Below, one piece after another: positions 702 to 29,258 of a stretch of 30,000 nucleotides of DNA. The stretch comes from Acerihabitans sp. (lineage in GTDB: Bacteria; Pseudomonadota; Gammaproteobacteria; Enterobacterales; Enterobacteriaceae). Numbering within the stretch: the first letter of the stretch is position 1; every line of letters begins with the position of its first letter. The stretch is from positions 21,637 to 51,636 of the forward strand of contig NZ_DASWOM010000011.1 of NCBI RefSeq assembly GCF_036398755.1, written 5' to 3'. Under the pieces are notes generated by a model that searched no databases, was not told the DNA's origin, and worked only from the letters and a program-made list of their open reading frames with translations. The position numbers were made by a program, and so were the translations under genes.

Positions 702-817
702 ATATCCGTAAGGCTCATAGCGAACGCTTTCGCGGGAAAGTTTTTAACAATATTCGATACCATAAACCCCCGCCTGTTATCCGGCGGATGAATAGTATTA
801 TGCCATTAGAGGTCCCA

Positions 818-2002: not shown

Positions 2003-2047
2003 GCGCCACGCCGGGTGCAACGTCAGCGATCCCGGGCGCTGGGACCG

Positions 2048-3265: not shown

Positions 3266-3879
3266 GCCTTGCTCCTGTCGGGCGTCATCTGGGTGGCGTT
3301 GTAAGGGGTGACGGCGCCGGTGACCGGATCGAACGCCACCCGTCGCACCAGCGTTTCCAACGGACGCCCGTATAAATGCAAATGCCGGGTCGTGCGCTTG
3401 CCGGTGACATGGATGCTATGGATATCCTCCGGCAGGAAGGCGATGGGCGTGCCCGGCTCAACCACCACTTCCCGCAGCAGGCGCAATTCGGCGTGATCCG
3501 GCCTGCCATGATCGTCATGGCGCTCATAGATGCGGTTCAGTTCCTGTCCTTCGACGGCGGCAATGGCGGCCCAGGTGGTATGGTTATGCGGCACCGAGTT
3601 TTTATCCGCCAGCAGCACGTTCAGATAGAGCGCGATGTCGTCATCGCCGTCGTGCGCGTTAAGACGGTAGCGCGCGGAGGCTTCGCCGTCGGCCGTCGGC
3701 GGCGGAAAATCGCGCGCGCTGAATAAGCTTTCATCCGCGGCCAGTCGCGCCAGACGCTGGGTCACCTGCTCCAGCAACGGACGGGATAATGGCTGTCCGT
3801 CCAAAATGGCGCGGATCTCCCGCAGCGTATCTTCTACCGCTTGCCGACGGCGTGAGGCCGATATATCCAGGGTAGTCAT
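3262..3879 (-). CDS. Cupin thiol dioxygenase, cysteine dioxygenase / 3-mercaptopropionate dioxygenase family
   Basis: 205 aa. A 3-His metal site pattern is present: VPHNHTTW (HxH) plus EDIHSIH. HLHLY matches the SLHLY (His155/Tyr157) motif of rat CDO. GGAG lies 7 nt upstream of the ATG. Confidence 0.75.
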   Translation of the reverse strand: MTTLDISASRRRQAVEDTLREIRAILDGQPLSRPLLEQVTQRLARLAADESLFSARDFPPPTADGEASARYRLNAHDGDDDIALYLNVLLADKNSVPHNHTTWAAIAAVEGQELNRIYERHDDHGRPDHAELRLLREVVVEPGTPIAFLPEDIHSIHVTGKRTTRHLHLYGRPLETLVRRVAFDPVTGAVTPYNATQMTPDRSKA

Positions 3880-3938
3880 GACTCTTCTCCCATAAGTGAG
3901 TAAACGATGTGGTGCTTAAGCGACGGTAGAAACCCTCT

Positions 3939-5444: not shown

Positions 5445-5447
5445 ACC

Positions 5448-5957
5448 CTAGTGGCTAATAAACGCGGGCCAGACCGGGATTAATTGATCCAGTCCCCAGA
5501 TAAACAACGTCACATTCAGCATGACCAGTACGGCCGTATTGGCAAGCGCGCCCCTGAGGGTGAACTGGCTGCTGGCCCTACTGGCAATCAGCACCAGCAG
5601 TGATACCGAAATCACCAGCCCCGCCGGCTCGAGCAATAGCGCGAATACCGTGGCGGCGCCCAGTACCCACAGCACTTTCCCCGCCCGCCACGGCGGCGCG
5701 GGGGCCGCCATGCGGCGGGCGGATAAAGAGAAAAGGATGACCAGCAGACCGAATGCCGCCAATAAGATCCCAAGGCAAAGCGGGAAAAACCCCGCGCCCA
5801 TCCGGGAGGCGGTGCCCATCGGGTATTGCCCCGCCAGGACGCTGAAACCGCCGCCCGTCAGGAAAAAAAAACAGCCGGACCAGAAATTCCGCCGATGGCG
5901 TATGGCCGGCAGGCCGCCGCGGCGCACCGCGTCGATTGTAAGGGAAGTGATATTCAC
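5448..5957 (-). CDS. tctB: TTT small permease TctB
   Basis: 169-aa, 4-5 TM protein between the tctC-like and tctA-like genes. It uses a GTG start. Its stop is 3 nt before the tctA start. Confidence 0.75.
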   Translation of the reverse strand: MNITSLTIDAVRRGGLPAIRHRRNFWSGCFFFLTGGGFSVLAGQYPMGTASRMGAGFFPLCLGILLAAFGLLVILFSLSARRMAAPAPPWRAGKVLWVLGAATVFALLLEPAGLVISVSLLVLIASRASSQFTLRGALANTAVLVMLNVTLFIWGLDQLIPVWPAFISH

Positions 5958-5999
5958 TATGGTTCCGCCTGTAAGAGCCGCCGCCCGCGGCAGCCGCTA

Positions 6000-6968
6000 T
6001 CATTGAATACTGATGCCCGCGTCGTGGACGATTTTGCCGTAACGCGTCGCGTCAGCGGCCAGTGTCTCGGCCAACTCTTGCGGCGTGCCGGCCTTTACGC
6101 CGTAACCCAGGTTCTCCAGTTCGCGCTTCACCCCGGGTGAACGCAGCACCTCGGCGAAGTCGCGGTTCAGCCGGTCGACGACGGCGGGGGGCGTGCCGGC
6201 CGGCGCCAGGTACCCCTGCCAGCTTTCAACGCTATAACCCGGCTGGCCCGATTCGGCCATGGTCGGCACCTCGGGCAACGCCGGCGACCGGTATGTCGTG
6301 GTCACCGCCAGCGCTTTTAACCGCCCGCTTTTAACATATTCGGTTACCGCCGCCAGGGTAATCAGCGTGGCGTTGGTATGGCCGGCGATAACATCCACCG
6401 CCGCCGGTCCGCCGCCGGGATAGGGGATATAGGTCACCTTGCCGCCGGTGCGCTGATTGAGAATTTCATGGGCAATCTGGGCAATGCCGCCGTTGGTGGG
6501 CAGCCCCAGGCTGATGGCGCCGGGTTTTTCCCGGGTTTCGGCCACATACTGCGCAAACGTAGCGATGCCGAGATTGGGATTGACCACCAGGATTTGCGGA
6601 TTGACCACCGCTTTGATGACAGGCGTAAAGGCGGCGGAATCATAGGGCAATTTCTTGAACAACAGCGCGTTAAGCGTCAGCGCTTCGCCGGTTTGCAGCA
6701 GGGTATAACCGTCGGCGGGCGCCTTCGCCACCTTGGCGCTGCCGATGGTGCCGCTGGCGCCGGGGACGTTTTCCACAATGACCGCTTGGCCCCATTTCTC
6801 ACTGAGCTTTTCCGCCAGCACGCGCGTAAGTTTATCGGCGCTGCCGCCGGCGGCCACCGGTACAATGATTTTGACCGGCTTTTGCGGAAATCCGGCGCGG
6901 TCCTCGGCGTTGGCCACCCCAAGCGTTGCAATCAGCAGACCCAAAGCCAGGGTTTTGTACGGTAACAT
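6000..6968 (-). CDS. tctC: TTT periplasmic substrate-binding protein TctC (Bug family)
   Basis: 322 aa. Sec signal peptide MLPYKTLALGLLIATLGVANA. Bug/TctC-like core (PVKIIVPVAAGGSADKLTRVLAEKLSEKWGQAVIVENVPGASG). GGAG lies upstream of the ATG. Confidence 0.9.
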   Translation of the reverse strand: MLPYKTLALGLLIATLGVANAEDRAGFPQKPVKIIVPVAAGGSADKLTRVLAEKLSEKWGQAVIVENVPGASGTIGSAKVAKAPADGYTLLQTGEALTLNALLFKKLPYDSAAFTPVIKAVVNPQILVVNPNLGIATFAQYVAETREKPGAISLGLPTNGGIAQIAHEILNQRTGGKVTYIPYPGGGPAAVDVIAGHTNATLITLAAVTEYVKSGRLKALAVTTTYRSPALPEVPTMAESGQPGYSVESWQGYLAPAGTPPAVVDRLNRDFAEVLRSPGVKRELENLGYGVKAGTPQELAETLAADATRYGKIVHDAGISIQ

Positions 6969-16812: not shown

Positions 16813-18102
16813 ATGCTCAAGCGTTTACGGTGGACAATGGTTTTTATGTTGTTTATGGCCGGCGTCATCAGTTATCTGGATCGCGCGGCGCTGTCCGTTG
16901 CCGCCCCTTTGCTGACCAAGGATTTAAACCTGGACCCGGCTGAACTGGGTATTGTATTCAGCAGCTTCTTCATTGGCTATTCGCTGTTCTGTTTTGTCGG
17001 CGGACACTTATCCGATCGCCTGGGGCCAAAAAAAGTCTTGCTGGCGGCCATGCTGGTGTGGTCGCTGTTCTGCGCCTTAACGGCCGGCGTGGCCGGTATC
17101 CTCTCCTTGTTGGTGGTCCGGGTAATCTTCGGCATGGGGGAGGGGCCTTATGCCACATGCACCAATAAAATCATCCACCAATGGTTTCCGGTCGAGAAAC
17201 GCACCACGGCGGTGGGTTTGGCTAACGCGGGTCAACAGGTGGGCGGCGCCATCGCCGGTCCGTTAGTCGGATTGATTGCCGTCACCTGGGGGTGGCGCGT
17301 TCCTTTTCTTCTTATCGGCTTTTTGGGGTTGATATGGCTAATCGTGTGGCGTTTTACCGCCAGCGACAAGCCGCAACTGCATCCCTGGCTGCGCGGCCGC
17401 CTTGACGAGTCAATCGACCCTACGCCCTCCGTTGCCCGCGAGGACACGCCCGCTGTTTCCCTGGGGCAATATTTGCGCCGGCCGACCGTTCTTGCCACGT
17501 CCTTTGCCTTTTTCGGCTACGCCTATGTTCTTTACTTCTTCCTGTCATGGTTCCCGAGCTTCCTGATGATGGAGCGTCATCTGAGCCTGGCCAGCATGAG
17601 CTGGGCGAATATTGTGCCCTGGGTGTTCGGGGCCAGCGGCATCATCTTGGGCGGCCTGATTTGCGATTTGTTGTATCGAAAACTGAAAAAAGGCATTCTC
17701 GCCCATAAAATCGTCATCGTGGTCAGCCTGTTGATTTCCGCCTGCTGCGTCGCCCTGGCCGGGCAGGCTTTCAGCGTCGCCGTGGCCATTGGCCTGATGT
17801 CGGGCGCCGCCTTTTTCACCAACCTTACCCTGAGCGCCTATTGGGGCATTATCTCGGATACGGTGCATGCCAGCCGCATCGGCAGCGTGGGGGGATTTAT
17901 GCATCTGGTGGCTAATACCGCCGGCATTATCGCGCCCACGTTAACCGGTTTTCTCGTCAAGGCCACCGGGACATTCCAGAGCGCTTTTCTTATTTCCGGC
18001 GCCGTTGCGTTGCTCGGCGCGCTGGGGGTGGCTATTTTTGTCCGCCAACCCACTCTTTATACAGCGCGTCGCCGATCGTCCGACATTCGTGCCGACGGTT
18101 AA
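16813..18102 (+). CDS. MFS transporter, anion:cation symporter (ACS) family (GudP/GarP/ExuT/DgoT-like organic-acid permease)
   Basis: 429 aa, about 12 TM segments. The N-terminal signature VISYLDRAALSVAAPLL and GHLSDRLGPKK are typical of ACS-family acid-sugar and organic-anion permeases. Confidence 0.85.
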   Translation: MLKRLRWTMVFMLFMAGVISYLDRAALSVAAPLLTKDLNLDPAELGIVFSSFFIGYSLFCFVGGHLSDRLGPKKVLLAAMLVWSLFCALTAGVAGILSLLVVRVIFGMGEGPYATCTNKIIHQWFPVEKRTTAVGLANAGQQVGGAIAGPLVGLIAVTWGWRVPFLLIGFLGLIWLIVWRFTASDKPQLHPWLRGRLDESIDPTPSVAREDTPAVSLGQYLRRPTVLATSFAFFGYAYVLYFFLSWFPSFLMMERHLSLASMSWANIVPWVFGASGIILGGLICDLLYRKLKKGILAHKIVIVVSLLISACCVALAGQAFSVAVAIGLMSGAAFFTNLTLSAYWGIISDTVHASRIGSVGGFMHLVANTAGIIAPTLTGFLVKATGTFQSAFLISGAVALLGALGVAIFVRQPTLYTARRRSSDIRADG

Positions 18103-18125
18103 CCAGGGGCGATGATAGCCAGATT

Positions 18126-18164
18126 AAAGCGGATGATACATAATCGTATACCCGCTTTTCTTTT
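18126..18164 (+). terminator. Probable intrinsic terminator after the ACS-family MFS gene
   Basis: 7-bp stem AAAGCGG/CCGCTTT (18126-18132 and 18152-18158). The 19-nt loop contains an inner ATAC/GTAT pairing. The stem runs into TTTTCTTTT. Confidence 0.5.
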
Positions 18165-18175
18165 GCAGGAGTCCT

Positions 18176-19090
18176 GTGGTGTCCGATCCTTTTGCGCAAG
18201 TGGTTGCCTTGCTCCAGCCGAGCACACCCTATTCCAAGATTGCCAGCGGCGCGGGCCGCTGGCGCGTTCAGCGCTCTGAGCCGGGACGGCCATTTTACTG
18301 CGCGGTTCTCGAAGGTGCCTGCCGGCTCGCGGCCGATGGCAACGAACCGCTGATCCTGGCCGAGGGTGACTTTGTCCTGATCCCGGCGGTGCATAACTTC
18401 TCGACGTCCAGCCTGCTTGCGGCGGGTCCGCAAGACCTCGTCGTCGCGCCAACCCTATTGGCCAATGGCGAATTCAGGCTAGGTAATGCGCATGGCCCCG
18501 CCGAGGTTCGCTTGCTGATAGGCTACTGCGTTTTTGATTCTCCCGACGCGGCGTTGCTGGTTTCGCTGCTGCCCAGGTTGGTGCATGTCCGCGGCGAAAA
18601 GCGGCTGGCCACCATCCTGCAGCTGGTGAGGGAAGAAGCGCGTTCGCAGAGGCCCGCGCGCGATATTATCCTGGCGCGGCTGCTGGAGGTGCTGTTTATC
18701 GAAGCCCTGCGCTCAACGGTTGGGACGTCGGCGTCGCCCGGACTTTTGCGCGGGCTGGCCGACGACCGCGTCGCGGGCGCATTGCGCGGCATGCATGAAA
18801 CGCCGTCACGCCCCTGGACCGTTGCGCAATTGGCGAAAGAAGCCTCCCTCTCGCGATCGGCGTTTTTTGAGCGTTTTCATCGTGCCCTGGGCGTCGCCCC
18901 GATGGAATACCTGCTCGCCTGGCGCATGGCATTGGCCAAGAATTTTCTGCGTAGCGGAAACCTGGCCATGACCGAAGTCGCCCAGCGGGTCGGCTACAGT
19001 TCGGCCAGTTCGTTCAGCGTGGCGTTTAACCGCTATGCGGGGCTGCCCCCGGCCCGGTACGCGCGCGAACAGGGCGAAGGGGCCGAGTAA
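18176..19090 (+). CDS. AraC-family transcriptional regulator with N-terminal cupin domain
   Basis: 304 aa. The N-terminus DPFAQVVALLQP is typical of cupin_6-type AraC regulators. The C-terminus has a double HTH (WTVAQLAKEASLSRSAFFERF ... MTEVAQRVGYSSASSFSVAFNR). GTG start with AGGAG at 18167-18171. Confidence 0.85.
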   Translation: MVSDPFAQVVALLQPSTPYSKIASGAGRWRVQRSEPGRPFYCAVLEGACRLAADGNEPLILAEGDFVLIPAVHNFSTSSLLAAGPQDLVVAPTLLANGEFRLGNAHGPAEVRLLIGYCVFDSPDAALLVSLLPRLVHVRGEKRLATILQLVREEARSQRPARDIILARLLEVLFIEALRSTVGTSASPGLLRGLADDRVAGALRGMHETPSRPWTVAQLAKEASLSRSAFFERFHRALGVAPMEYLLAWRMALAKNFLRSGNLAMTEVAQRVGYSSASSFSVAFNRYAGLPPARYAREQGEGAE

Positions 19091-19101
19091 ACAATCCGGC
19101 G

Positions 19102-19938
19102 CTAGCGGTCATGCAGCAACAGCTCGCCGCACCCATACCGGCGCGTCCGCTCAAGCGTCGCCATGACATCCCGGTAAGCATGCTCGATCGCCTGCGGGAG
19201 GGGGATGTTTTTCAGCATATAGCCGGTCAACGCCGCGCTGAAAAGATCGCCCGTCCCTTTCGGCGTGGCGTTGATGCGCGGATGCGCGAACACCTGTTCC
19301 TGGTCGCGGGTCACCATAATGACGCGCATCGCTTGTTCGCTATCGTCGAGGGGCGCCGGCGCGGCGCTGGTGACCACGACCCACCGGGTCCTGCCGGTGA
19401 GCAGGGTACGGGCCGCGGCGATGGCCTGGTCTATCGTGGTGATGCGGCGCCCGGTTAATGTTTCCAGCTCAAAGCAATTGGGCGTCATCCCCTGGGCGTG
19501 TGGCAGCAGGGTGTCAAGGTAGGCCCGGGTCATCCTGGGGTCGACGTAGATGCCGGTATCATAATCGCCGATAACCGGATCAATGATAACCATAATCTCC
19601 GGGCGGCGGGCGACAAGTTGCGTTAACCATTCGGCCAATATTTCCGCCTGCGAGGGGCCGCCCATATAGCCGACCAGGACGGCCCGGGTCTGCCCGGCCA
19701 CGCCACGGTCATCAAGTCCCCGCAGATAGCCCCTAAACCATTCATCCGGCACCGCGCCGCCGTACAGGGAGGGGTAGTGCGGCGTATTGCTGAACATCAC
19801 CGTGGGCACCGCCGCGGCGCTGAAACCCATGCGTTGCAAGGTTGGAATGGCGACACTGTTGCCCACGCAACCATAGACCACCTGGGACTGGACGGATATC
19901 ACATCCACCGGCAGGGTTTTTAGCGACTCGTTGATCAT
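19102..19938 (-). CDS. pdxK: Pyridoxal/pyridoxine/pyridoxamine kinase
   Basis: 278 aa. Closely collinear with E. coli PdxK as I recall it: VISVQSQVVYGCVGNSVAIP, AVPTVMFSNTPHY..YGG..PDEWF, DPVIGD, KGTGDLF. Confidence 0.9.
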   Translation of the reverse strand: MINESLKTLPVDVISVQSQVVYGCVGNSVAIPTLQRMGFSAAAVPTVMFSNTPHYPSLYGGAVPDEWFRGYLRGLDDRGVAGQTRAVLVGYMGGPSQAEILAEWLTQLVARRPEIMVIIDPVIGDYDTGIYVDPRMTRAYLDTLLPHAQGMTPNCFELETLTGRRITTIDQAIAAARTLLTGRTRWVVVTSAAPAPLDDSEQAMRVIMVTRDQEQVFAHPRINATPKGTGDLFSAALTGYMLKNIPLPQAIEHAYRDVMATLERTRRYGCGELLLHDR

Positions 19939-19995
19939 AAAAAATATGCCTTAACCTGATTCTCGTGCATCACTGCGCCTACCCGGCGATAACGG

Positions 19996-20019
19996 ACCCG
20001 GACCCCGGCCGGGTTTTTT
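19996..20019 (+). terminator. Terminator-like hairpin with no upstream + strand gene
   Basis: ACCCGG/CCGGGT stem (19996-20001 and 20009-20014) with a 7-nt loop. The stem's terminal T opens a 6-T run (20014-20019). It lies in the pdxK / panE-like spacer. Confidence 0.45.
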
Positions 20020-20077
20020 CATGCATCGCATGCCGGGCTTAGCCAACCCTATAGTACTGTATTCCTTTGGGCAATAC

Positions 20078-20123
20078 TCCCTGCCGCGACCGGTGTAAAC
20101 AATGAAACAACAGGGATTTTTTT
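20078..20123 (+). terminator. Second terminator-like element in the same spacer
   Basis: TCCCTG/CAGGGA stem (20078-20083 and 20111-20116) followed by T7 (20117-20123). The 27-nt loop weakens the call. Confidence 0.3.
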
Positions 20124-20280
20124 CCTCGCGCAAGCGCTATTTTCAGCGCGACGCATCATGGCGCCTGATTTTAGGGCGCGCGGCGCTGGCGTCAACCGGG
20201 CAATGAACAGATTTCGCTGTAATAATGGCGCGGGGCTGCTTAGTATGGCAGATGCCTTTTATCAGCACGGGATGATAGTG

Positions 20281-21174
20281 ATGACCATTGAAAATCCAAC
20301 CATTGCCCTCGTCGGGCCGGGTGCCATCGGCACGACCCTGGCGGCGGCGCTGCATGAAGCCGGACGCACGCCAACCCTCTGCGGGCGCACGGCGCTTGAG
20401 CGCCTGGAGCTGCGCTTCGACGGCGGTCGTATCCTGGTGCCCGGGCCCGTGCATACCGATCCGGGCTTGATCAAGCATACCTTCGACCTGGTTTTCGTCG
20501 CGGTCAAGACGACCCAGGTGGCGGCGGCGGCGCCGTGGCTGTACGCATTGTGCGGCGCGAAAACGGTGGTCTGCGTACTGCAAAACGGCGTTGAGCAGCA
20601 AACGCTTTTCGCGCCGTTTTTATCCGGCGGCCCGGTGCTGCCCTCGGTGGTATGGTGTCCCGCGCAACGGGAACCGGACGCCTCGGTATGGCTGCGCGCC
20701 GAAGCACGCCTCACCCTGCCGGACACGCCGGCGGCCAGCCTGGTGATCGCCGCTTTGCGCGGCACCCGTTGTTCGGTCGACCTGGCGCAGGATTTTACCT
20801 CCGTCGCGTGGCGAAAACTGCTGCAGAACGCGGTCGCGGGTTTAATGGTGCTGGCCGGTCGCCGTGCCGGCATGTTCGCGCGCGCCGATATCTCCGGTCT
20901 GGCCCTGGCCTACCTGAGGGAATGTCTTGCGGTGGCGCGCGCCGAGGGCGCATTGCTGGGCGACGACGTACCGCAGGAGATCCTCGAGGGCTTTCATCGC
21001 TCCCCGCCCGACCTGGGCACCTCCATCCTTGCCGACCGCCAGGCCGGCAACCCGCTTGAATGGGACTGCCGGAACGGGGTGGTGCGCAGATGTGGCCAGG
21101 CTCGCGGCATTCCAACGCCGATAAGCGATCTGGTGGTGCCGCTGCTGGCCGCCGCCAGCGACGGACCCGGCTGA
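20281..21174 (+). CDS. 2-dehydropantoate 2-reductase family oxidoreductase (PanE/ApbA-like)
   Basis: The Rossmann motif IALVGPGAIG lies near the N-terminus when the start is ATG 20281. Also present are AVKT, LQNGV and a C-terminal ApbA_C-like region (ILADRQAGNPLEWDCRNG). The track start at 20158 adds 41 poorly coding-looking residues. Confidence 0.75.
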   Translation: MTIENPTIALVGPGAIGTTLAAALHEAGRTPTLCGRTALERLELRFDGGRILVPGPVHTDPGLIKHTFDLVFVAVKTTQVAAAAPWLYALCGAKTVVCVLQNGVEQQTLFAPFLSGGPVLPSVVWCPAQREPDASVWLRAEARLTLPDTPAASLVIAALRGTRCSVDLAQDFTSVAWRKLLQNAVAGLMVLAGRRAGMFARADISGLALAYLRECLAVARAEGALLGDDVPQEILEGFHRSPPDLGTSILADRQAGNPLEWDCRNGVVRRCGQARGIPTPISDLVVPLLAAASDGPG

Positions 21175-21221: not shown

Positions 21222-21423
21222 CTTCGGGTCGGCATCCTTATCTTCCCCAGGCTCAGCCCGGCCAAGCAGAGGCCGAACCGCGCCCCGTCATTGTCGCGGC
21301 GCATTAAAAATGTTTTTATAAACAAGATATAGATCACACTTAGTATTTCTTCTTTAAATCAATAGATTAACCATGATTTTTGTATTTTTGCTTAAAAGTC
21401 GTTGTAATTGCAAATCCACGCCG

Positions 21424-21451
21424 TTGACATCAATGCACACGTGTGCATAAA
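21424..21451 (+). promoter_or_regulatory. Candidate sigma70 promoter upstream of the kinase-enolase operon
   Basis: TTGACA (21424-21429), a 16-nt spacer, then CATAAA (21446-21451), inside the AT-rich spacer. It lies about 200 nt upstream of ATG 21656. A second, weaker candidate is TTGACA at 21576-21581. Confidence 0.45.
21433..21448. promoter_or_regulatory. Candidate LacI-family operator
   Basis: Perfect 16-bp palindrome ATGCACACGTGTGCAT with a central CG, the same architecture as PurR/CcpA/LacI-type operators. It overlaps the spacer and -10 of the candidate promoter. Confidence 0.5.
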
Positions 21452-21655
21452 TTAAGTCAATCGCGGCAAAGAATAACGGTTGTGAAAAGAGCGCTTACGC
21501 ATTGGTATTCATTTAAGCAGGTTAAATTTAAGTGAATCGCCGTTTTTGGGTAAACAACGGGCAGCTGTTGAATAATTGACAATTCTTATTGTTGATGGGT
21601 TTAGTGCGCGTTTAAAAACCATGCCGGTCTAAAGTTGGCCAGAGAAGGGTGACAT

Positions 21656-22684
21656 ATGGGAAATAGTTTTATAGACCTGTCGGCTGAACATCAGGCCATC
21701 CAGGAGGTGCTGCAAAATATGGGACTATTGCATGCGGGTAATACCTGGCATGCCACCGCCCTGACCGGCGGCGTATCCTCTAATATTTTAAAAATCACCG
21801 TCGGCAATCGGCAATTCTGTCTTAAACAGGCCTTGCCTACGCTTAAAGTCGCCAAAGAATGGCACGCGCCATTGGAGCGGATTTTTGCCGAAATCGACTG
21901 GATGAAAACCGTTGCGCGGATTGAACCCCATGTAGTGCCAAAGATATTGGGCGTGGATAACCGGCATCTCTGTTTCGTCATGGAATATTTGCCTGCGGAA
22001 CACTATCGCAATTGGAAATCCCAGCTATTGAACGGCGAGATTGATGTTGGTTTCGCCGAACGAATGGGGGGCATTCTTAATAACATACATAAACAAACGG
22101 CAAAGAATAACGAACTGGCGAGAATGTTTGCCTACGATGAGAACTTTTTCTCGCTGCGGCTGGATCCCTATCTTGGGGAAATCGCGCGCCATTGCCCTGA
22201 GCACTCCGCCTCTATTCTATCCATATTGCATCGCACCCAAACCACGAAAATCGCTTTGGTTCATGGTGATGTCAGTCCAAAGAATATTCTGCGCGGACCG
22301 CAAGGCCCGGTGATCCTGGATGCGGAATGTGCCTGGTACGGCGATCCCGCTTTTGATTTGGCATTCTGCCTCAATCATTTTTTACTGAAATCCGTTATCG
22401 CAAAAAAGAGCATTGATAAACAGCGGCTGCTGGCTTCGTTTCAGGCCCTGAGTGAAAAATATATTGCCGATATAGATTGGGAGCCTGCGGCGGATTTGAA
22501 TCTGCGCGCGGCAACGCTTTTGCCTTGTCTGCTGCTGGCGCGGGTTGATGGAAAATCACCGGCCGAATATATACAAGGCCGGGATGCGGATCGGGTGCGC
22601 CAGGCAAGTTTCACCTTACTTGACCGTGGATATACGCAATTAAAAGATATCCAGGAATTCTGGAAGAAGGAGATAGGTTTATGA
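21656..22684 (+). CDS. APH-fold small-molecule kinase, methylthioribose-kinase (MtnK)-like
   Basis: 342 aa. MtnK-like N-lobe (LTGGVSSNILKI ... CLKQALPTLKV). Brenner catalytic motif HGDVSPKN. Mg-binding segment ILDAECAWYGDPAFDLAF (compare MtnK IDPEFAFYGP.GFD). AAGGG RBS. The stop overlaps the next ATG. Confidence 0.8.
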   Translation: MGNSFIDLSAEHQAIQEVLQNMGLLHAGNTWHATALTGGVSSNILKITVGNRQFCLKQALPTLKVAKEWHAPLERIFAEIDWMKTVARIEPHVVPKILGVDNRHLCFVMEYLPAEHYRNWKSQLLNGEIDVGFAERMGGILNNIHKQTAKNNELARMFAYDENFFSLRLDPYLGEIARHCPEHSASILSILHRTQTTKIALVHGDVSPKNILRGPQGPVILDAECAWYGDPAFDLAFCLNHFLLKSVIAKKSIDKQRLLASFQALSEKYIADIDWEPAADLNLRAATLLPCLLLARVDGKSPAEYIQGRDADRVRQASFTLLDRGYTQLKDIQEFWKKEIGL

Positions 22685-23952
22685 GTAAAATAAAAAATAT
22701 CGTTGCCCGGCGTATATGGGATTCCCGCGGCTGGCCGACCGTTGAAGCCGAAGTTCATTTAGATAACGGCGTTATCGGCCGGGGTTTGGCCCCGGCCGGC
22801 GCCTCGCGCGGTATGCATGAAGCCGTTGAACTGCGCGACGGCGGCGCCACGCTCTCGGGCAAGGACGTGCGGCAGGCATTGTTGAATATCAAACATGAAA
22901 TCGCCCCCGCGCTGATCGGCCTGGACGTCACCGACCAGCGGTTAATCGATAATACCTTGATTGAACTGGATGGCACCGGCAACTTTGCCCGTTTGGGCGC
23001 CAATGCCACCGTAGCCTGCTCGATGGCCGCTATATACGCGGCCGCGGGCCACGCGCATGTGCCTTTGTGGAAATATCTTGCCGGCGGCAACCCTGTCGCC
23101 ATGCCTTTGCCGCAGATTCAAATTTTCGGCGGCGGGGCCCATGCCGGCCGGCGTATCGATATCCAGGATCTGATGGTGATTGCCAACGGCGCAACCTCCT
23201 TCCAGGAAGCCCTGGTGATGACCGCCGAGGTCTATCACAGCGCGGGTCGAATCATGGAGCGGCGCGGGCAGTTAAATGGCGTCGCCGATGAGGGCGGCTG
23301 GTGGCCCGCGTTTTCAAATAACGAGCAAGCGCTTGATACGCTGGTTAAGGCGATTGAGGGCGCGGGTTACACGCCGGGCCAGGATGTGTCCATCGCGTTG
23401 GACATCGCGTCGTCCGAGTTTGGTCAAAACGGACGTTATCGTCTGGCGCTGGAGTCAACCGAATATGACTCGGACGGCATGTGCGAATTATTACTCGGCT
23501 GGCTTGACCGCTATCCCATTATTTCCATTGAAGACCCGTTAGCTGAAGATGATGAGGCGGGATTGATTGCCTTTACCAAAGCGGCGGGCGCGCGCGTTCA
23601 AATCGTCGGTGATGACTATTTCGTGACCAATGCCGATCGGGTCAAGGCCGCCGTGGCGAAAGGAGCCTGCAACGCCGTGCTGTTAAAACCCAATCAGGCC
23701 GGCACCCTTACCCAATTATTCAATGCCTGTGAACAGGCAAAGTCGGCCGGCTTTGGGACGATTATTTCGGCCCGCTCCGGGGAGACGGAGGATAATATCA
23801 TCGTACATTTAGCCCTGGGCCTGAATGCCGGGCAATTAAAAGTGGGCTCCATAACACGCGCCGAGCGTACCTCGAAATGGAATGAGGCCATTCGCCTGGA
23901 AGATTCAAACGATTTGGGTTTTTTAGGGATAAGGGCACTGGGAAATAAATAA
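22681..23952 (+). CDS. Enolase-family protein (divergent phosphopyruvate hydratase paralogue)
   Basis: 423 aa, collinear with E. coli Eno. Shared segments: DSRGWPTVEAEVHL, GASRG, VADEGGW, ALDIASSEF, ISIEDP, IVGDDYFVTN, LLKPNQAGTL, SGETED, LKVGS. AGGAG RBS. The ATG overlaps the kinase stop as ATGA at 22681-22684. Confidence 0.9.
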   Translation: MSKIKNIVARRIWDSRGWPTVEAEVHLDNGVIGRGLAPAGASRGMHEAVELRDGGATLSGKDVRQALLNIKHEIAPALIGLDVTDQRLIDNTLIELDGTGNFARLGANATVACSMAAIYAAAGHAHVPLWKYLAGGNPVAMPLPQIQIFGGGAHAGRRIDIQDLMVIANGATSFQEALVMTAEVYHSAGRIMERRGQLNGVADEGGWWPAFSNNEQALDTLVKAIEGAGYTPGQDVSIALDIASSEFGQNGRYRLALESTEYDSDGMCELLLGWLDRYPIISIEDPLAEDDEAGLIAFTKAAGARVQIVGDDYFVTNADRVKAAVAKGACNAVLLKPNQAGTLTQLFNACEQAKSAGFGTIISARSGETEDNIIVHLALGLNAGQLKVGSITRAERTSKWNEAIRLEDSNDLGFLGIRALGNK

Positions 23953-24087
23953 CTGAAGGTTTACATGATTTATTAGCTGAACAGGCGTTATCTATAGGTT
24001 TTATTATCCTATATCCTGCCGTTTTTTGACTGTCTGTTCTGGTTATAGGAATTTTTGCAATTCAATATTTGCAATCAGGAGATTCAA

Positions 24088-25398
24088 ATGACCGAATACG
24101 GCAGTGAAACTTTACCCGTGGCTGAAAAAAAGGTGCAGGTAAAACCCATCATTCAGGTGGGGGCGGGCAACGCGCTCGAAATATATGATTTTATGATCTA
24201 TGGGTATTATGCCCGTTATATATCCCAGGCATATTTTCCTTCAGATAATGAATATACTTCACTTATGCTAACGCTGATGACCTTTGCGCTGGGTTTCTTT
24301 GCCCGGCCATTCGGGGCGATTATATTAGGATCCTATACCGATCGGCATGGACGAAGAAAAGGCTTGGTTTTATCGCTGTTTTTAATGTCGCTCGGGATCC
24401 TGTGTATTGCCCTCACGCCGACCTATGCCGCCATAGGCGTGGCCGCGCCGATTATTGTACTGTTAGGCCGGCTGCTGCAAGGGTTCTCCGCCGGTGCTGA
24501 ATTAGGTGGCGTGGTGGTCTATTTAGCCGAAATATCACCGCCCCATCGCCGGGCTTTTTATACCTGCTGGCAGGTGGGTTCGCAGCAGTTTGCCGTCATG
24601 ACGGCGTCGATTGTAGGCCTGGTCCTGCTTTATGCCATGCCGACCGCGCAACTGCACGACTGGGGCTGGCGTATCCCCTTGCTCATTGGCTGCGCCGTTA
24701 TTCCGCTGATGTTCTGGTTACGTTCAAATCTCCAGGAAACCGCGGTTTTCGCCAAGAAAAAAAGAACGCCGACGGTAAAGGAAATTTGCTCTAGCCTGAC
24801 CACCGGATGGCGCACCATAGTGACCTGTATGGGCATGGTGGCCATGGCGACCGTTACCGCGCAAACTGTTACCACCTATGCGCCAACCTATATCAAAAGC
24901 CTTAACCTGGGGGAAAACGTGGGTTTTATTACGTTATTCTTCGTTGGTTTGTCTATTTTATTCTGGTTGCCCATCACCGCGTCTATCGCCGATCGCGTCA
25001 ACCGGCGCACGATGATGATAATAGTGACGCTGCTGGCCGCCGTCACCGCTTATCCTCTTCTATCATGGCTTTCAGCGGAACCCACCATCCTTAAGTTTGT
25101 GGTGTTCGAGCTGTGGTTCTCATTTATTTACGCCTGCTATAGCTCGGTACAGGTCGCCGCCATGGTGGAAATGGTGCCGGCGCATGCCCGCACCGCGGGT
25201 TATTCCTTTGCGCAGGCGGTAGCCGCCGCCGTCCTGGGCGGGTTGACCCCGGCCATTTACACCTGGCTGAACCATGCTTTCAACAGCAATGCGATGGTCG
25301 GGGTCTGGCTTGGTTTCAACGCGCTGCTGAGCCTTATCGCCGTATTGACGCTTGACCATAAACAAACAAAGATAAATCAATTCGTTGAATTGCATTGA
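24088..25398 (+). CDS. MFS transporter, metabolite:H+ symporter (MHS) family, citrate/tricarballylate (CitA/TcuC)-like
   Basis: YDFMIYGYYARYISQAYFP...SLMLTLMTFALGFFARPFGAIILGSYTDRHGRRKGL resembles the CitA/KgtP-type signature. I prefer ATG 24088, preceded by AGGAG. The track start is 24055. Confidence 0.85.
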   Translation: MTEYGSETLPVAEKKVQVKPIIQVGAGNALEIYDFMIYGYYARYISQAYFPSDNEYTSLMLTLMTFALGFFARPFGAIILGSYTDRHGRRKGLVLSLFLMSLGILCIALTPTYAAIGVAAPIIVLLGRLLQGFSAGAELGGVVVYLAEISPPHRRAFYTCWQVGSQQFAVMTASIVGLVLLYAMPTAQLHDWGWRIPLLIGCAVIPLMFWLRSNLQETAVFAKKKRTPTVKEICSSLTTGWRTIVTCMGMVAMATVTAQTVTTYAPTYIKSLNLGENVGFITLFFVGLSILFWLPITASIADRVNRRTMMIIVTLLAAVTAYPLLSWLSAEPTILKFVVFELWFSFIYACYSSVQVAAMVEMVPAHARTAGYSFAQAVAAAVLGGLTPAIYTWLNHAFNSNAMVGVWLGFNALLSLIAVLTLDHKQTKINQFVELH

Positions 25399-25467: not shown

Positions 25468-26430
25468 ATGAAAATAGTTATTTTAGATGGCGGCGTGCTC
25501 AATCCCGGCGATCTTTCATGGACGCGGCTTGAGCAGTTGGGAGAGATACAGGTTTATGAAAATTCGGCGCCGGAGGAGGTGGTGGAACGCATAGGCCGTG
25601 CGGAGATCGCTATCGTCAATAAGGTGTCTTTGGGCCGGAAAGAATTTGAGCGCTGTCCTGAGCTCAGGTTTATCGGCGTTACGGCGACCGGTTATAATAA
25701 CATCGATCTTGCCGCCGCCGGAAACCAGGGTATCGCCGTGGCCAATGTTCCCACCTACGGCACGGTTACCGTGGCGCAATTTACCACTTCGCTGATGCTC
25801 GAACTCTGTAATCACGTGGGTGAACACGCGCTTGACGTCCGCGCCGGCGGCTGGAGCCGAAAAACCGACTTTTGCTATTGGCTGAAACCAATGATCGAGG
25901 TCGCCGATAAAAGCGTCGGCATTATCGGCTTCGGCCGCATTGGCCAGGCGTTCGGCATGGTTGCCCAGGCGCTCGGGATGAAGGTCCTGGCCTATGATGA
26001 GCATCGCGACCTGTCGCTGGAAAATGAGCGGGTCCGATATGTCGATTTGGACACTCTGTATGCGCAAGCGGATATCATCAGCCTGCACTGTTTATTGACC
26101 GGCAAAACGCAGGGCATGATTAACGCCGCCGCCATCGGCAAAATGAAAAAATCGGTGTTGATCCTGAACGCCTCACGGGGCGACCTGGTCAATGAAGCGG
26201 ATTTGGCCGCGGCGTTAAACAGCGGCCGCGTCGCCGGCGCGGCGGTGGATGTGCTATCGCAGGAGCCGCCGTCGCCGGATAATCCGCTGCTGTCCGCCAG
26301 GAACTGCCTGGTTACGCCGCATATTGCCTGGGCTTCGGTCGAGGCGCGCGGGCGGATTCTCGCCATCACCGCCGACAACGTCAAGGCGTTTATCAACGGT
26401 CACCCGCAAAATCGGGTTGATACTCTCTAA
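25468..26430 (+). CDS. D-isomer-specific 2-hydroxyacid dehydrogenase, glycerate dehydrogenase/hydroxypyruvate reductase (HprA)-like
   Basis: 320 aa. NAD fold GIIGFGRIGQAFG. Candidate catalytic Arg (NASRG), Glu (DVLSQEPP) and His (TPHIAWAS). The overall pattern (MKIVILD..., FCYW, SLHCLLT) resembles HprA-type enzymes. Confidence 0.85.
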   Translation: MKIVILDGGVLNPGDLSWTRLEQLGEIQVYENSAPEEVVERIGRAEIAIVNKVSLGRKEFERCPELRFIGVTATGYNNIDLAAAGNQGIAVANVPTYGTVTVAQFTTSLMLELCNHVGEHALDVRAGGWSRKTDFCYWLKPMIEVADKSVGIIGFGRIGQAFGMVAQALGMKVLAYDEHRDLSLENERVRYVDLDTLYAQADIISLHCLLTGKTQGMINAAAIGKMKKSVLILNASRGDLVNEADLAAALNSGRVAGAAVDVLSQEPPSPDNPLLSARNCLVTPHIAWASVEARGRILAITADNVKAFINGHPQNRVDTL

Positions 26431-26458: not shown

Positions 26459-27241
26459 ATGGAAAATTCAATTACCAACGCGGCGGATGTGATTCGCGCG
26501 GCATGGGAAAATGGCAAAGCCGGGCAACCCATCCGCGCTGCTTTCAGTGATGACGATACCGTCAGCGGATATAGGATCCAGGAATACAATGATACCCTTT
26601 GGCAGGCGCAAGGGCGCCGGCGGGTCGGCCGCAAGCTGGCGTTGACCAATAAAGCCGTGCAGCGGCAATTCGGCATGTCCCGGCCCTGCCATGGGAATAT
26701 CTATGCCGACATGGTATTGGTGGAAGGAACCGAAATCACCAGGCGGGCCTCCTCCGAGCAGCGCGTCGAAACTGAAATAGCGGTGGTGCTTAAAAAAGAC
26801 CTGACGCAGACCACTCATACCATCCTGGATATTATCGACGCCTGCGATTATATATTGCCCGCCTTTGAAATTGTGGATAGCCGCTTTATCGGCTGGAATG
26901 TCAGGTCCTGTGATTTTATCGCCGATAATACCTCCGCCTGCCTGGTGGTTTTTGGCACCAAACCGGTCAGGTTGTCTGATTTTGATATGACGCGCAGCCT
27001 GATGACCACCAAAAGAGGTGATGAGGTGGTCTCTGTAGGCGCCGCGGCGGCGTGCCTGGGCCATCCCTTGCACGCCCTCAAATGGCTTGCCGATGAACTT
27101 GTTCGCGCCGGGAATCCGCTCAGGGCGGGGGAATTCGTCATCACCGGCGCGCTGGGGCCGGCGGTCGCCGCCGCGCCCGGCGATACGTTTACCGCCGAGA
27201 TCACCGGCCTGGGTTCGGTTACCACGGTTTTTGCTCGATAA
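26459..27241 (+). CDS. 2-oxopent-4-enoate / 2-oxohept-3-enedioate hydratase family protein (MhpD/HpcG/XylI class, FAH fold)
   Basis: The family pattern is present: YRIQE, GRKLALTNKAVQRQFG, ETEIAVVLKKDL, FEIVDSRF..W, IADNTSA, LGHPLHALKWLADEL..AG.PLRAGEFVITGAL. ATG 26459 is the first in-frame start after the upstream gene's stop. The RBS is weak. Confidence 0.8.
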   Translation: MENSITNAADVIRAAWENGKAGQPIRAAFSDDDTVSGYRIQEYNDTLWQAQGRRRVGRKLALTNKAVQRQFGMSRPCHGNIYADMVLVEGTEITRRASSEQRVETEIAVVLKKDLTQTTHTILDIIDACDYILPAFEIVDSRFIGWNVRSCDFIADNTSACLVVFGTKPVRLSDFDMTRSLMTTKRGDEVVSVGAAAACLGHPLHALKWLADELVRAGNPLRAGEFVITGALGPAVAAAPGDTFTAEITGLGSVTTVFAR

Positions 27242-27277: not shown

Positions 27278-28057
27278 ATGACACGACAGCGTGAACTGCA
27301 GCAGAATCATTTTAAGCATGCGATTAAACAGGGGCAGGTTCAACTGGGTTTGTGGACGCAGCTGGGCAGCGCTATTGCCGCGGAAATCCTCTCCGGCTGC
27401 GGCTACGATTTCATGGGTTTGGACGCGGAGCATGGCCCCAGCGAGTATATGGATATCTATGCCCAACTGCAGGCCTGCGCCGCCGGCGGCCCGACACAGC
27501 CGGTGGTCCGGCTGCCCAACCAGGATATCTCGCTGATAAAACGCTATCTCGACGCCGGGGCGAATACGCTGATGGTGCCGCAGGTGGATACCCCGGAACA
27601 GGCCGAAACGCTCGTCTCGGCGGTGCGCTATCCGCCCCGGGGCATTCGTGGTTATTGCGGCGCGCCCAGGGCGTCAAACTTCGGCAGGATAAAAAATTAC
27701 GCCGCCGTCTGCGAACGCGAAATTTGCCTGATCGTGATGCCGGAGACCATCACTGCCCTTGATAACCTTGAAAAAATGGCTGCGATTGACGGCATCGACG
27801 GCTTTTTTATCGGCCCGGGGGATTTGGCCGCCAGTCTGGGATATATCGGCCAGCCCATGCATCCGGAGGTCATCAAGACCATTGAAGAGAGCGGCAGACG
27901 AATTAAGGCCGCGGGTAAAGCCGCCGGCATTCTGTGTACCGATGAACAGCAAACGCGGCGCTATATTGAAGTGGGTTTTCAGATTATCGCGATCGGATCG
28001 GATCAGGGGCTGTTAACCCAAGGCGCTGAAAACCTGTTGGCAAAATTTCGGCAATAA
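27278..28057 (+). CDS. HpcH/HpaI/GarL-family class II 2-keto-3-deoxy-acid aldolase
   Basis: 259 aa, collinear with E. coli GarL as I recall it: GLW..., DAEHGP, PVVRLP, YPPRGIRG, DGFFIGPGDLAASLG, AIGSD. AGGA RBS 6 nt upstream of the ATG. Confidence 0.88.
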   Translation: MTRQRELQQNHFKHAIKQGQVQLGLWTQLGSAIAAEILSGCGYDFMGLDAEHGPSEYMDIYAQLQACAAGGPTQPVVRLPNQDISLIKRYLDAGANTLMVPQVDTPEQAETLVSAVRYPPRGIRGYCGAPRASNFGRIKNYAAVCEREICLIVMPETITALDNLEKMAAIDGIDGFFIGPGDLAASLGYIGQPMHPEVIKTIEESGRRIKAAGKAAGILCTDEQQTRRYIEVGFQIIAIGSDQGLLTQGAENLLAKFRQ

Positions 28058-28145: not shown

Positions 28146-29258
28146 TTACCGTTCTGACCGGTTCACGCCGGTTGAATCGCCAAGCGCCAGCCGTGGCGTA
28201 AATAGCTGGTTTTCTGTCGAGCGGATAAATTCATCATGGGTTAAAGTCAATTCGCTGTCCATGATGTGGCGAATCATATCCACGCAGGCGTCAGTCACTT
28301 CTTTTTCCGGTAGCACGACCGTCGTGAGCTGCATATCCAGCAAACTTCCCCAGGGCACCAGGCCATAGGCCACCACGGAAAGATCCTGCGGAATGCGAAC
28401 GCGCAGCGCTTTGGCGGCGGTCAACATGCCCATGGCGTAACGCGGGCTGCCCAGCACCAGCGCGCTTGGCGCGTGGTCCACGCTCATGATCCGTTTAAAG
28501 GCGGCGGTGCCGAACTCGGCCTGCGGCGGTCCGATATGGATAATATCCTTGAGCGCCGCCTGCTCCGCACTCGAGAAATGCTGTAAAAACCCCTGCAATC
28601 GTTCAAAGCCGGTGCTCAGGTCGGTGGATGACCCTATATAGCCAATCCGGGTATGGCCGAGTCTGCGCAAATGCACGGTGGCGAGACTGATGCCATAACG
28701 ATCGTCAATCGCGATAAGCGGCGCCTGGATGCCGTCATGGCGGCGGAGCAGCTGCACCGCATGGGTACGGGTGATAAGCTCCCGCGTTTCGGGCAGGGGA
28801 TTTGCCGAGGGCGCAATAATAATGCCATCCACGCTTGCGGCCATCATCCGGCGCAAAACGTGATATTCCGTATCAGGGTGATCTTCGGTAATGGCCAGGA
28901 TCATTTGCCACGATCGTTTACCCGCCTCGCGGGCGATGGCATTGGTTACGGAAATAAAAAAGTCGTTCTGGATATCGGGAATAATGACCCCAAAAGCGCC
29001 GCTTGTCGCATTACGCAATGCCTGCGCGGCGCTGTTGGGAATATAGCCATATTTTTTTGCAGCCTGTAGCACGCTTTCTCGGGTGGATTGACTGATTGCC
29101 GGGTGACCGTTTAAGGCACGGGAAACCGTGGAATGAGACAATCCCAAAATAGCAGCCAATTTCTTTATCGTCACCGAGCTACCTTTAATTCGGCCAGGTC
29201 CTGGTTTCCCTAACTTATGTATAGTATTAAAATACTTAATAATATTACCATCAGTCAC
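28146..29258 (-). CDS. LacI/GalR-family transcriptional regulator
   Basis: HTH segment VTIKKLAAILGLSHSTVSRALNGHPAISQSTRESVLQAAKKYGYIPNSAAQALR followed by a periplasmic-binding-fold effector domain. GTG 29258 has GAGGG 7 nt upstream. An alternative GTG at 29174 (AAAGG 7 nt upstream) would give the canonical LacI N-terminus. Confidence 0.88.
   Translation of the reverse strand: MTDGNIIKYFNTIHKLGKPGPGRIKGSSVTIKKLAAILGLSHSTVSRALNGHPAISQSTRESVLQAAKKYGYIPNSAAQALRNATSGAFGVIIPDIQNDFFISVTNAIAREAGKRSWQMILAITEDHPDTEYHVLRRMMAASVDGIIIAPSANPLPETRELITRTHAVQLLRRHDGIQAPLIAIDDRYGISLATVHLRRLGHTRIGYIGSSTDLSTGFERLQGFLQHFSSAEQAALKDIIHIGPPQAEFGTAAFKRIMSVDHAPSALVLGSPRYAMGMLTAAKALRVRIPQDLSVVAYGLVPWGSLLDMQLTTVVLPEKEVTDACVDMIRHIMDSELTLTHDEFIRSTENQLFTPRLALGDSTGVNRSER

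Follow-up and report, generated by a model that had tools for sequence, protein, structure and literature searches.

Results

The subject of this analysis is a stretch of 30,000 nucleotides from Acerihabitans sp. (contig NZ_DASWOM010000011.1, positions 21,637 to 51,636), hereafter the window, in which two overlapping genes encode a small-molecule kinase of the APH/MtnK fold and a paralogue of enolase. The elements of this gene pair are listed here in window coordinates (ORF, open reading frame; aa, amino acids).

21656..22684, + strand: APH/MtnK-fold small-molecule kinase; ORF of 342 aa with a Pfam APH match and a weak MtnK match
22681..23952, + strand: enolase-family paralogue; ORF of 423 aa with altered residues around the C3 pocket
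22681..22684, + strand: ATGA, the enolase start codon over the kinase stop codon, read in the sequence
22668..22672, + strand: AGGAG, Shine-Dalgarno motif for the enolase gene within the kinase coding sequence, read in the sequence

At the junction, GAAGAAGGAGATAGGTTTATGAGTAAA, the start codon ATG of the enolase gene occupies 22681-22683 and so overlaps the kinase stop codon TGA (22682-22684); AGGAG is separated from the ATG by 8 nt. A first-pass annotation, made from the letters of the window, had reported both the ATGA overlap and the AGGAG in the 3' end of the kinase gene, and both lie at the positions it gave. Co-translation of the two proteins in fixed stoichiometry is a reasonable inference from this overlap. 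Across related loci, a 4-nt start/stop overlap (NTGA) was present in 90 of 152 junctions (59%) and an overlap of any kind in 113 of 152, and most of the junction sequences inspected carry a Shine-Dalgarno-like AGGAG or AGGAA within the 3' end of the kinase gene (judged by eye, uncounted). In a distant clade represented by Methylobacterium nodulans pMNOD02 and Rhodococcus opacus PD630, the gene order is reversed, with the enolase gene preceding the kinase gene, and 4-nt overlaps are found there too. Because overlaps are the majority state and occur in both gene orders, translational coupling appears to be an ancestral habit of the kinase-enolase pair.

Conservation of the pairing

Is the adjacency peculiar to this genome, or is it a property of both gene families? 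The kinase was searched for in one genome per species (185,579 species genomes), which yielded at least 585 confirmed relatives, and adjacency was scored from the kinase side in the best 80 of these at least 585 genome loci. An enolase gene adjoins the kinase gene in 76 of the 80, following it in 75 and preceding it in one; two of the remaining four loci end at a contig edge, and two (L058 and L060) are truly without an adjacent enolase gene, their neighbours being unrelated and uninformative. From the enolase side, a metagenome search matched at least 535 contigs; 80 loci were examined for an upstream kinase gene, which lies directly upstream on the same strand in 73, and six of the other seven have no upstream sequence. 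Adjacency in relatives, set beforehand as a test capable of refuting the pairing, is thus conserved in about 95% of loci in both directions. The association is far beyond chance, and the pairing is near-obligate both ways and across phyla. Together with the overlap counts, these results support the initial claim that the pair is dedicated and conserved, is coupled in translation and serves one pathway.

The hosts include Enterobacterales, Rhizobiales, Rhodospirillales, Burkholderiales, Actinomycetes, Nitrospira, acidobacterial-type metagenome-assembled genomes (MAGs) and Methylomirabilales. The kinase gene was found on 25 plasmid or chromid records, among whose carriers are Azospirillum brasilense, Cupriavidus necator, Rhizobium and Rhodococcus opacus, and the enolase gene was confirmed on all nine of the records inspected. 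A distant-homology search did not find the operon in 5,426 complete Escherichia coli genomes, and a near-identity search of a plasmid collection returned no similar DNA.

The kinase

The kinase matches Pfam APH (PF01636) with 71.3 bits (cutoff 23.2), and its best NCBIfam match, MtnK (TIGR01767), consists of two partial stretches scoring 74.3 bits, below the cutoff of 275. An AlphaFold2 (AF2) model built on 43 homologues reached a predicted local distance difference test (pLDDT) value of 93, and the top Foldseek matches of this model were the MtnK structures 2pul, 2olc and 2pyw (template modelling (TM) score 0.77-0.84, E ~ 1e-16, 16-17% identity), followed by PsiK and the lanthipeptide kinase LxmK. 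Residues K57, E79, H203, D205, N210 and D222, plus many Arg and Lys residues, are invariant in the 43 homologues, all of which keep the ATP-binding Lys, the HGDxxxxN catalytic loop and the Mg-binding Asp. The family match and the AF2 model bear out the MtnK/APH fold assigned at first sight, and the invariant residues show an intact catalytic core; the many invariant Arg and Lys residues would fit an anionic substrate.

In public annotation the protein is an 'aminoglycoside phosphotransferase family protein' or a '5-methylthioribose kinase'. It matched no NCBIfam resistance model, and its gene lies in a catabolic context, locked to the enolase gene; no methionine-salvage genes (mtnA, mtnB, mtnD and others) were present among the annotated neighbours in the window and the related loci. 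MtnK, the best structural match, has the same HGDxxxxN loop and Mg-binding Asp, but the kinase of the pair is ~55 residues shorter, is only 16-17% identical and has no methionine-salvage neighbours. The invariant Arg and Lys residues of this kinase suggest an acidic substrate, whereas the substrate of MtnK (and of the related 5-deoxyribose kinase) is neutral. The kinase also evolves faster than its partner: identity to Enterobacteriaceae homologues (L001-L003, L087) is 64-67% for the kinase and 81-83% for the enolase, and 83-87% for the transporter encoded downstream, a member of the major facilitator superfamily (MFS).

The enolase paralogue

The enolase scores 469.8 bits against TIGR01060 (cutoff 300), with 288 bits for Enolase_C and 158 bits for Enolase_N, and is publicly annotated as 'phosphopyruvate hydratase' of the 'glycolytic process'. 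Its best PDB matches are canonical enolases, those of Lactobacillus and Enterococcus at ~55% identity, so that no solved structure from its own clade was found there; it scores 403 bits against the Lactobacillus enolase 4mks and 352 bits against the E. coli enolase 1e9i. Identity to the kinase-linked enolases of Rhizobium and Azospirillum is 73-74%. We regard the protein as belonging to a paralogous lineage, distinct by its sequence from the enterobacterial housekeeping gene. Its accessory status is indicated indirectly by the E. coli genomes that are without the operon, by the plasmid and chromid relatives and by a drop in GC content at the operon (described below); no pyrG-eno locus lies within the window.

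To compare active sites, 72 kinase-linked enolases, including that of the window, were aligned with two canonical enolases from the PDB search and numbered as in yeast. All 72 keep Ser39, His159, Gln167, Glu211, Asp246, Glu295, Asp320, Lys345, Arg374, Ser375 and Lys396, among which are the Mg2+ ligands (Ser39, Asp246, Glu295 and Asp320), the catalytic base (Lys345) and acid (Glu211) and the phosphate site (Arg374 and Ser375). Four positions are changed in all 72 (Glu168 to Asp, His373 to Ala, Thr397 to Val and Ala215 to Trp) and two more in most (Ser158 to Ala in 70, Val346 to Pro in 67). In the window enolase, the corresponding residues are D163 (Glu168), A364 (His373), V388 (Thr397), W208, A153 and the Pro that follows the catalytic Lys. 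Altogether, the clade differs from both aligned canonical enolases, each of which carries Glu168 and His373, at 28 positions with a fixation of 95% or more. Six further plasmid members, distant or unlinked and in two cases only 42-47% identical, all keep Asp168, Ala373 and Val397, whereas Trp215, Ala158 and Pro346 vary among them.

To our knowledge, Glu168 and His373 are invariant in enolases acting on 2-phosphoglycerate (2-PG), and an E168Q enolase is almost inactive. The changed residues presumably surround the C3-OH, as we take it from yeast enolase structures in which Glu168, Glu211 and His373 lie around the C3 hydroxyl of 2-PG. Because the residues concerned are kept in all 72 sequences, the carboxylate, metal and 2-phosphate sites and the acid-base pair appear to be intact, while the C3 pocket appears to have been rebuilt. 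A conserved new Arg near the active-site lid, considered as a sign of extra negative charge on the substrate, was rejected, since some members have W/C/M or L/T/A there. The paralogue shares its two-domain fold, metal ligands, Lys345, Glu211 and Arg374/Ser375 with canonical Eno (TIGR01060), but is set apart from it by Asp168, Ala373 and Val397, by its kinase partner and by its frequent plasmid location. The initial description of a true enolase-family protein that is nevertheless a paralogue is borne out by the TIGR01060 score and by this clade signature.

The operon in the window

Downstream of the pair, the window contains four further catabolic genes and a convergent regulatory gene.

24088..25398, + strand: MFS carboxylate/H+ symporter, TcuC-like; NF011656, 518 bits (cutoff 445)
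25468..26430, + strand: D-isomer-specific 2-hydroxyacid dehydrogenase, by family matches
26459..27241, + strand: FAH-fold protein of the 2-keto-4-pentenoate hydratase/decarboxylase type; NF008461, 248 bits, below the cutoff of 350
27278..28057, + strand: HpcH/HpaI-type class II pyruvate aldolase; HpaI 288, GarL 246 and KDR aldolase 241 bits, all below cutoffs
28146..29258, - strand: LacI-family transcriptional regulator, convergent with the operon

For the transporter, the listed ORF starts at TTG 24055, and the likelier start is ATG 24088, which follows AGGAG at 24077-24081. The hydratase start is more likely ATG 26459, because the ORF from 26249 overlaps the dehydrogenase gene. The same seven-gene block is present in Yokenella, Enterobacter and an Enterobacteriaceae MAG, and the six catabolic genes recur in the same order, with the LacI-family gene elsewhere, in Rhizobium panacihumi and on an alphaproteobacterial metagenome contig. 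In loci of Yokenella, Enterobacter, UBA3516 and Rhizobium, the MFS gene is likewise found at this place.

Where the operon begins, the GC content, 0.62-0.63 over 18-21 kb, declines to 0.50-0.55 over 21-25 kb, a sign that the kinase-enolase block may be foreign in composition to the flank on its left. That flank (16813-21174) looks ordinary, with genes for an MFS transporter, an AraC/cupin_6 regulator, a pyridoxal-kinase-like PfkB protein (- strand) and a PanE/ApbA-type reductase, none of which recurs with the pair elsewhere. A separate cluster (788-6968), 15-20 kb upstream of the pair, encodes an enolase-superfamily protein of the mandelate racemase/muconate-lactonizing type (788-2002), a Cys/Met enzyme dependent on pyridoxal phosphate (2048-3265, - strand) and TctA/TctC tricarboxylate transporter components (3939-5444 and 6000-6968, - strand).

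Promoter and operator

Two regulatory elements were located upstream of the kinase gene.

21424..21453, + strand: sigma-70-like promoter with -35 TTGACA (21424-21429), -10 TAAATT (21448-21453) and a spacer of 18
21433..21448, no strand: perfect 16-bp palindrome ATGCACACGTGTGCAT with a central CG, between -35 and -10; predicted LacI operator

The promoter matches the consensus at 10 of 12 positions, which in a scan by itself is at chance level; five Enterobacterales upstream regions, though diverged in their flanks, agree fully in TTGAC and the -10 element. In all five of these aligned regions the whole arrangement TTGAC-N-ATGCACACGTGTGCAT-AAATT is invariant, and the palindrome ATGCACACGTGTGCAT occurs only once in the window. 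The same operator 14-mer lies upstream of the kinase gene in Azospirillum, in a betaproteobacterium and in metagenome loci. With up to two mismatches allowed, the operator was found in 14 of 19 loci with a LacI homologue, versus 1 of 128 loci without one, and the LacI-family protein and the GCACACGTGTGC operator are therefore a probable dedicated repressor-operator pair. Upstream of the kinase gene, two loci (L006, 7917-7956; L088, 1571-1603) carry the GCACACGTGTGC operator as two tandem copies, which suggests cooperative or double repression in some lineages. The five Enterobacterales upstream regions all share a second motif as well, GATCACAC (21332-21339, within the region 21323-21339). Located about 125 nt upstream of the -10 element, this motif is compatible with the right half of a CRP-type site (GA-N6-TCACA).

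Partner genes across loci

Clustering of neighbouring ORFs was swamped by antisense shadow ORFs in high-GC loci and was replaced by tblastn against a panel of Pfam-identified families, combined with called genes, in 148 loci. The commonest partner is a D-2-hydroxyacid dehydrogenase, encoded in 23% of these loci and by the next gene in 20 of 113. The other recurrent families, as percentages of the 148 loci, are as follows.

LacI: 13%
FAH: 10%
TctC: 10%
HAD: 10%
FGGY kinase: 9%
MFS: 7%
HpcH aldolase: 6%
GarR-like (NAD_binding_2) reductase: 5%
FMN-dependent 2-hydroxyacid oxidase family (Pfam FMN_dh): 5%

An EamA transporter gene was present in 15 loci of an earlier 83-locus set analysed by ORF clustering. 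The recurrent partners are of the type found in carboxylate or acid-sugar catabolism, namely, LacI regulators, MFS, tripartite ATP-independent periplasmic (TRAP), Tct and EamA transporters, D-2-hydroxyacid dehydrogenases, FAH proteins, HpcH aldolases and short-chain dehydrogenases/reductases (SDRs). Most loci are without a recurrent partner, so the pair itself is the unit. Informative arrangements, in which a slash separates groups of genes, are given below.

Paraburkholderia: LacI / kinase-enolase-MFS, and LacI / kinase-enolase-dehydrogenase-MFS
Bosea: kinase-enolase-dehydrogenase-LacI next to a TRAP permease
Rhizobium panacihumi: LacI / GarR-like, MOFRL glycerate kinase, HpcH aldolase, kinase, enolase, MFS, dehydrogenase, FAH, HpcH; no dehydratase
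Consotaella: kinase-enolase-dehydrogenase-FAH-HpcH, then LacI, TctCBA, GarR-like, MOFRL
Metagenome contig: block of the kinase-enolase-MFS-dehydrogenase-FAH-HpcH type, ending in RraA-like and GarR-like genes
Paracoccus and Roseibium plasmids: TctCBA / LacI / kinase-enolase-FAH-SDR(-SDR)-sugar ABC transporter-SDR, with three or four SDRs
Two Rhizobium plasmids (L169, 5169-9990; L173, 6160-10990): LysR / ppc-dehydrogenase-kinase in an apparent operon, the dehydrogenase being CtBP-like

No acid-sugar dehydratase gene was found in the Paracoccus or Roseibium plasmid cluster, and a lactonase gene lies near the cluster on the Roseibium plasmid. In L169 and L173 an enolase gene with the clade signature is located ~5 kb away on the other strand, among genes for VOC and cupin proteins, an alcohol dehydrogenase and a LIV-type ABC transporter. 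In a group of Burkholderiales loci (L017, L045, L050, L051, L067, L070 and others), an FGGY sugar kinase gene stands divergently directly upstream of the kinase gene, and genes for a DeoC/LacD aldolase, a hexapeptide transferase and a ParA-like ATPase are repeatedly found around the pair, either as lineage synteny or for reasons of function.

Discussion

A proposed reaction for the pair

We propose that the two proteins may be consecutive enzymes, the first phosphorylating O2 of a 2,3-dihydroxy acid larger than glycerate and the second carrying out an enolase-type dehydration to a 3-substituted phosphoenolpyruvate (PEP), and we put the probability of this reading at roughly 0.4. The kinase would transfer a phosphate from ATP onto the 2-hydroxyl of a D-configured 2,3-dihydroxy carboxylic acid. 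The enolase paralogue would bind the resulting 2-phospho acid in the manner of 2-PG, with ligands for two Mg2+, the phosphate site, Lys345 as base and Glu211 as acid, and would remove the 3-hydroxyl, so producing a 2-keto-3-deoxy acid in its phosphoenol form, a 3-substituted PEP. Its substrate is most likely not glycerate, and a larger acid sugar or hydroxy-di- or tricarboxylate (aldarate, aldonate or tartrate) seems more likely. In this way the pair would stand in for the acid-sugar dehydratase that is lacking in these clusters.

In the window, the acid would enter through the TcuC-like MFS transporter, and the D-2-hydroxyacid dehydrogenase would supply or interconvert the 2-hydroxy and 2-keto forms. 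After loss of the phosphate, the FAH-type enzyme would handle the 2-keto-3-deoxy acid, which the HpcH aldolase would cleave to pyruvate and an aldehyde, and the LacI-family protein would repress the operon at the GCACACGTGTGC operator overlapping the promoter. The gene pairing and coupling, the folds, the kept and changed residues and the association of operator with regulator are observed; we infer the O2 phosphorylation and the elimination, what the substrate is, what becomes of the phosphoenol product and in which order the enzymes act.

Several features lead to these assignments. The retained 2-phosphate site suggests that what the kinase makes is a carboxylic acid phosphorylated at O2 and bearing a leaving group at C3; the retention of Lys345 and Glu211, together with a D-specific dehydrogenase partner, points to a C2 configuration as in D-2-phosphoglycerate; and the rebuilt C3 pocket suggests a C3 substituent other than the plain CH2OH of glycerate. 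L-glycerate was considered as a substrate and judged unlikely, given that the commonest partner makes D-2-hydroxy acids and that the base and acid are kept in place. A dehydration of this kind would explain why some clusters contain every other enzyme of an acid-sugar route yet no dehydratase, and why a canonical glycerate kinase gene can occur within the same cluster. The proposal is further favoured by the near-obligate pairing with overlapping codons across phyla, by the invariant Arg and Lys residues of the kinase, by partners typical of carboxylate or acid-sugar catabolism and by the rarity of dehydratases near the pair. Among 158 loci there were 5 with a dehydratase of the mandelate racemase (MR) type and 3 with one of the UxaA type, about six distinct loci, in most of which the distance to the kinase gene is 3-8 kb or more.

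Several observations weigh against this proposal. However different the gene context, the core signature does not vary, which fits one small intermediate, for instance a C3 acid, better than a range of larger ones, and 78 of 113 loci have no recognisable catabolic partner directly downstream. No conserved enzyme was seen for the dephosphorylation of a substituted PEP, a step that pyruvate kinase or a HAD phosphatase (10% of loci) would have to perform. In one Rhizobium plasmid lineage, the presence of ppc in an operon with the dehydrogenase and kinase genes points to PEP itself as the product. Finally, the dehydratase count covers these two families only, within about 8-10 kb.

Alternative explanations

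An important question is whether the substrate could simply be glycerate. The kinase would then be a non-orthologous D-glycerate 2-kinase and the paralogue would convert 2-PG to PEP, forming a portable glycerate-to-PEP lower branch for use in many catabolic clusters whose end point is hydroxypyruvate, tartronate semialdehyde or glyceraldehyde. We consider this the main rival, less likely than the reaction proposed above; it accounts best for the ppc linkage, for the partner resembling hydroxypyruvate reductases and for the uniformity of the clade over contexts. The commonest partner, often the next gene, belongs to the D-2-hydroxyacid dehydrogenases, the family of hydroxypyruvate reductases, and GarR-like NAD_binding_2 reductases (several clusters) and FMN-dependent 2-hydroxyacid oxidase-family genes (5% of loci) occur as well; the ppc-dehydrogenase-kinase order with an enolase gene nearby on the two Rhizobium plasmids mirrors a segment of the serine cycle. 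Minimal operons consisting of LacI, kinase, enolase, in some cases the dehydrogenase, and a transporter need a product that enters central metabolism directly, the invariance of kinase and enolase over contexts fits one common intermediate, and the enolase scores above the TIGR01060 cutoff.

Against glycerate stands the active site, as Glu168 and His373 are replaced in every member, including the clades of 42-47% identity, and this loss is left unexplained if the substrate is 2-PG. Moreover, a cell with abundant enolase needs no private one for 2-PG, and MOFRL glycerate kinase genes are present in the Rhizobium panacihumi cluster and beside the Consotaella cluster. Enterobacteriaceae with the operon normally have garK or glxK, which also counts against a further glycerate kinase. 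The first-pass annotation had suggested that the kinase makes a 2-phospho-3-hydroxy acid for the enolase, either as a replacement for glycerate 2-kinase or on a route to a PEP analogue; the PEP-analogue version fits the evidence at least as well, and the glycerate version is weakened by the altered residues and the MOFRL genes.

In a third, improbable scheme, the kinase phosphorylates O2 of a 3-substituted lactate, and the paralogue expels the substituent to give PEP itself. The candidates are 3-sulfolactate, 3-phosphoglycerate, isoserine and 3-mercaptolactate, from which sulfite, phosphate, ammonia or sulfide would leave. The changed residues would indeed surround such a leaving group, with the phosphate and metal sites intact; PEP as the product would explain both the ppc linkage and the stand-alone two-gene loci; the dehydrogenase could reduce the matching 3-substituted pyruvate; and the near structural relatives of the kinase include LxmK, which phosphorylates to enable elimination. 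However, no recurrent linkage to a sulfite exporter or oxidase or the like was seen, the single case being a TauE gene near L178, the LacI regulators and sugar ABC transporters point to carbohydrate-like effectors, and no particular substituent is directly supported.

The last explanation, an adjacency without metabolic meaning between an aminoglycoside or macrolide phosphotransferase, or an MtnK, and a spare glycolytic enolase, is suggested by the public annotations, which name an antibiotic or methylthioribose kinase and a phosphopyruvate hydratase, but it can be dismissed for practical purposes, together with roles in antibiotic resistance and methionine salvage, in view of the pairing with overlapping codons in about 95% of loci both ways, the MtnK score of 74 bits against a cutoff of 275, the neighbourhoods without mtnA, mtnB or mtnD, the invariant signature of the enolase clade and the dedicated predicted LacI operator that the pair shares. 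The 'enolases' of methionine salvage are RuBisCO-like or HAD proteins and do not have the enolase fold.

Relation to known systems

Glycerate 2-kinases (MOFRL/TM1585; GarK/GlxK) would likewise make a 2-phospho-hydroxy acid for an enolase, and they belong to similar acid-sugar clusters with a GarL-like aldolase and a GarR-like reductase; the fold of the kinase studied here is unrelated to theirs, and the presence of a MOFRL gene and the APH-type kinase gene in the same cluster argues against redundancy between them. Acid-sugar dehydratases (GudD/GarD, the MR subgroup, IlvD/Edd and UxaA) perform the same net reaction as that proposed, from 2,3-dihydroxy acid to 2-keto-3-deoxy acid, in similar surroundings of transporter, LacI-type regulator, HpcH aldolase, FAH hydrolase and SDRs. 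They are, however, single enzymes that use no ATP, whereas the route proposed for the pair would have a phosphorylated substrate and a phosphoenol product.

In class V lanthipeptide biosynthesis (LxmK/LxmY), a kinase of this fold class likewise works together with an elimination enzyme of its own. There, the substrate is a peptide Ser or Thr and the phosphate leaves, whereas, judging by the kept 2-phosphate site of the paralogue, the product of the pair would retain its phosphate. A single function is usually ascribed to the enolase family proper. Carboxyphosphonoenolpyruvate synthase of phosphinothricin biosynthesis offers a precedent, as an enolase-family protein with a modified 2-PG for its substrate. 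In that case the modification is on the phosphate and not at C3, and the gene belongs to a phosphonate biosynthetic cluster without an APH-type kinase partner.

A full-text literature search, RefSeq protein accessions included, found no description of the kinase-enolase pair, in agreement with the initial remark that no characterised APH/MtnK-fold kinase is known to feed a true enolase-fold enzyme. Both folds are familiar; the literature found describes neither the obligate couple nor the clade signature nor the probable reaction.

Implications

The pair is present in hundreds of bacterial species, and many public 'enolase' annotations probably name the wrong reaction. If the substrate of the clade differs from 2-PG, metabolic reconstructions of many soil and plant-associated bacteria hold a phantom second glycolytic enolase and miss a catabolic step. 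If the substrate is glycerate after all, the kinase would represent a fourth, unrelated class of glycerate kinase, and the question would arise as to how an enolase works without Glu168 and His373.

Taken more broadly, a diverged, large and ancient enolase clade with an obligate MtnK-fold kinase may perform ATP-primed dehydration via 3-substituted PEPs, a view that we hold tentatively. If it is true, the clade would show plainly that function has diverged within the enolase family itself, with Glu168Asp, His373Ala and Thr397Val as the marks of this divergence, and its partner would add a new substrate type to the MtnK-fold kinases. The pair would then provide a metal-dependent, iron-sulfur-independent and potentially ATP-neutral alternative to the acid-sugar dehydratases, as well as a natural source of PEP analogues.

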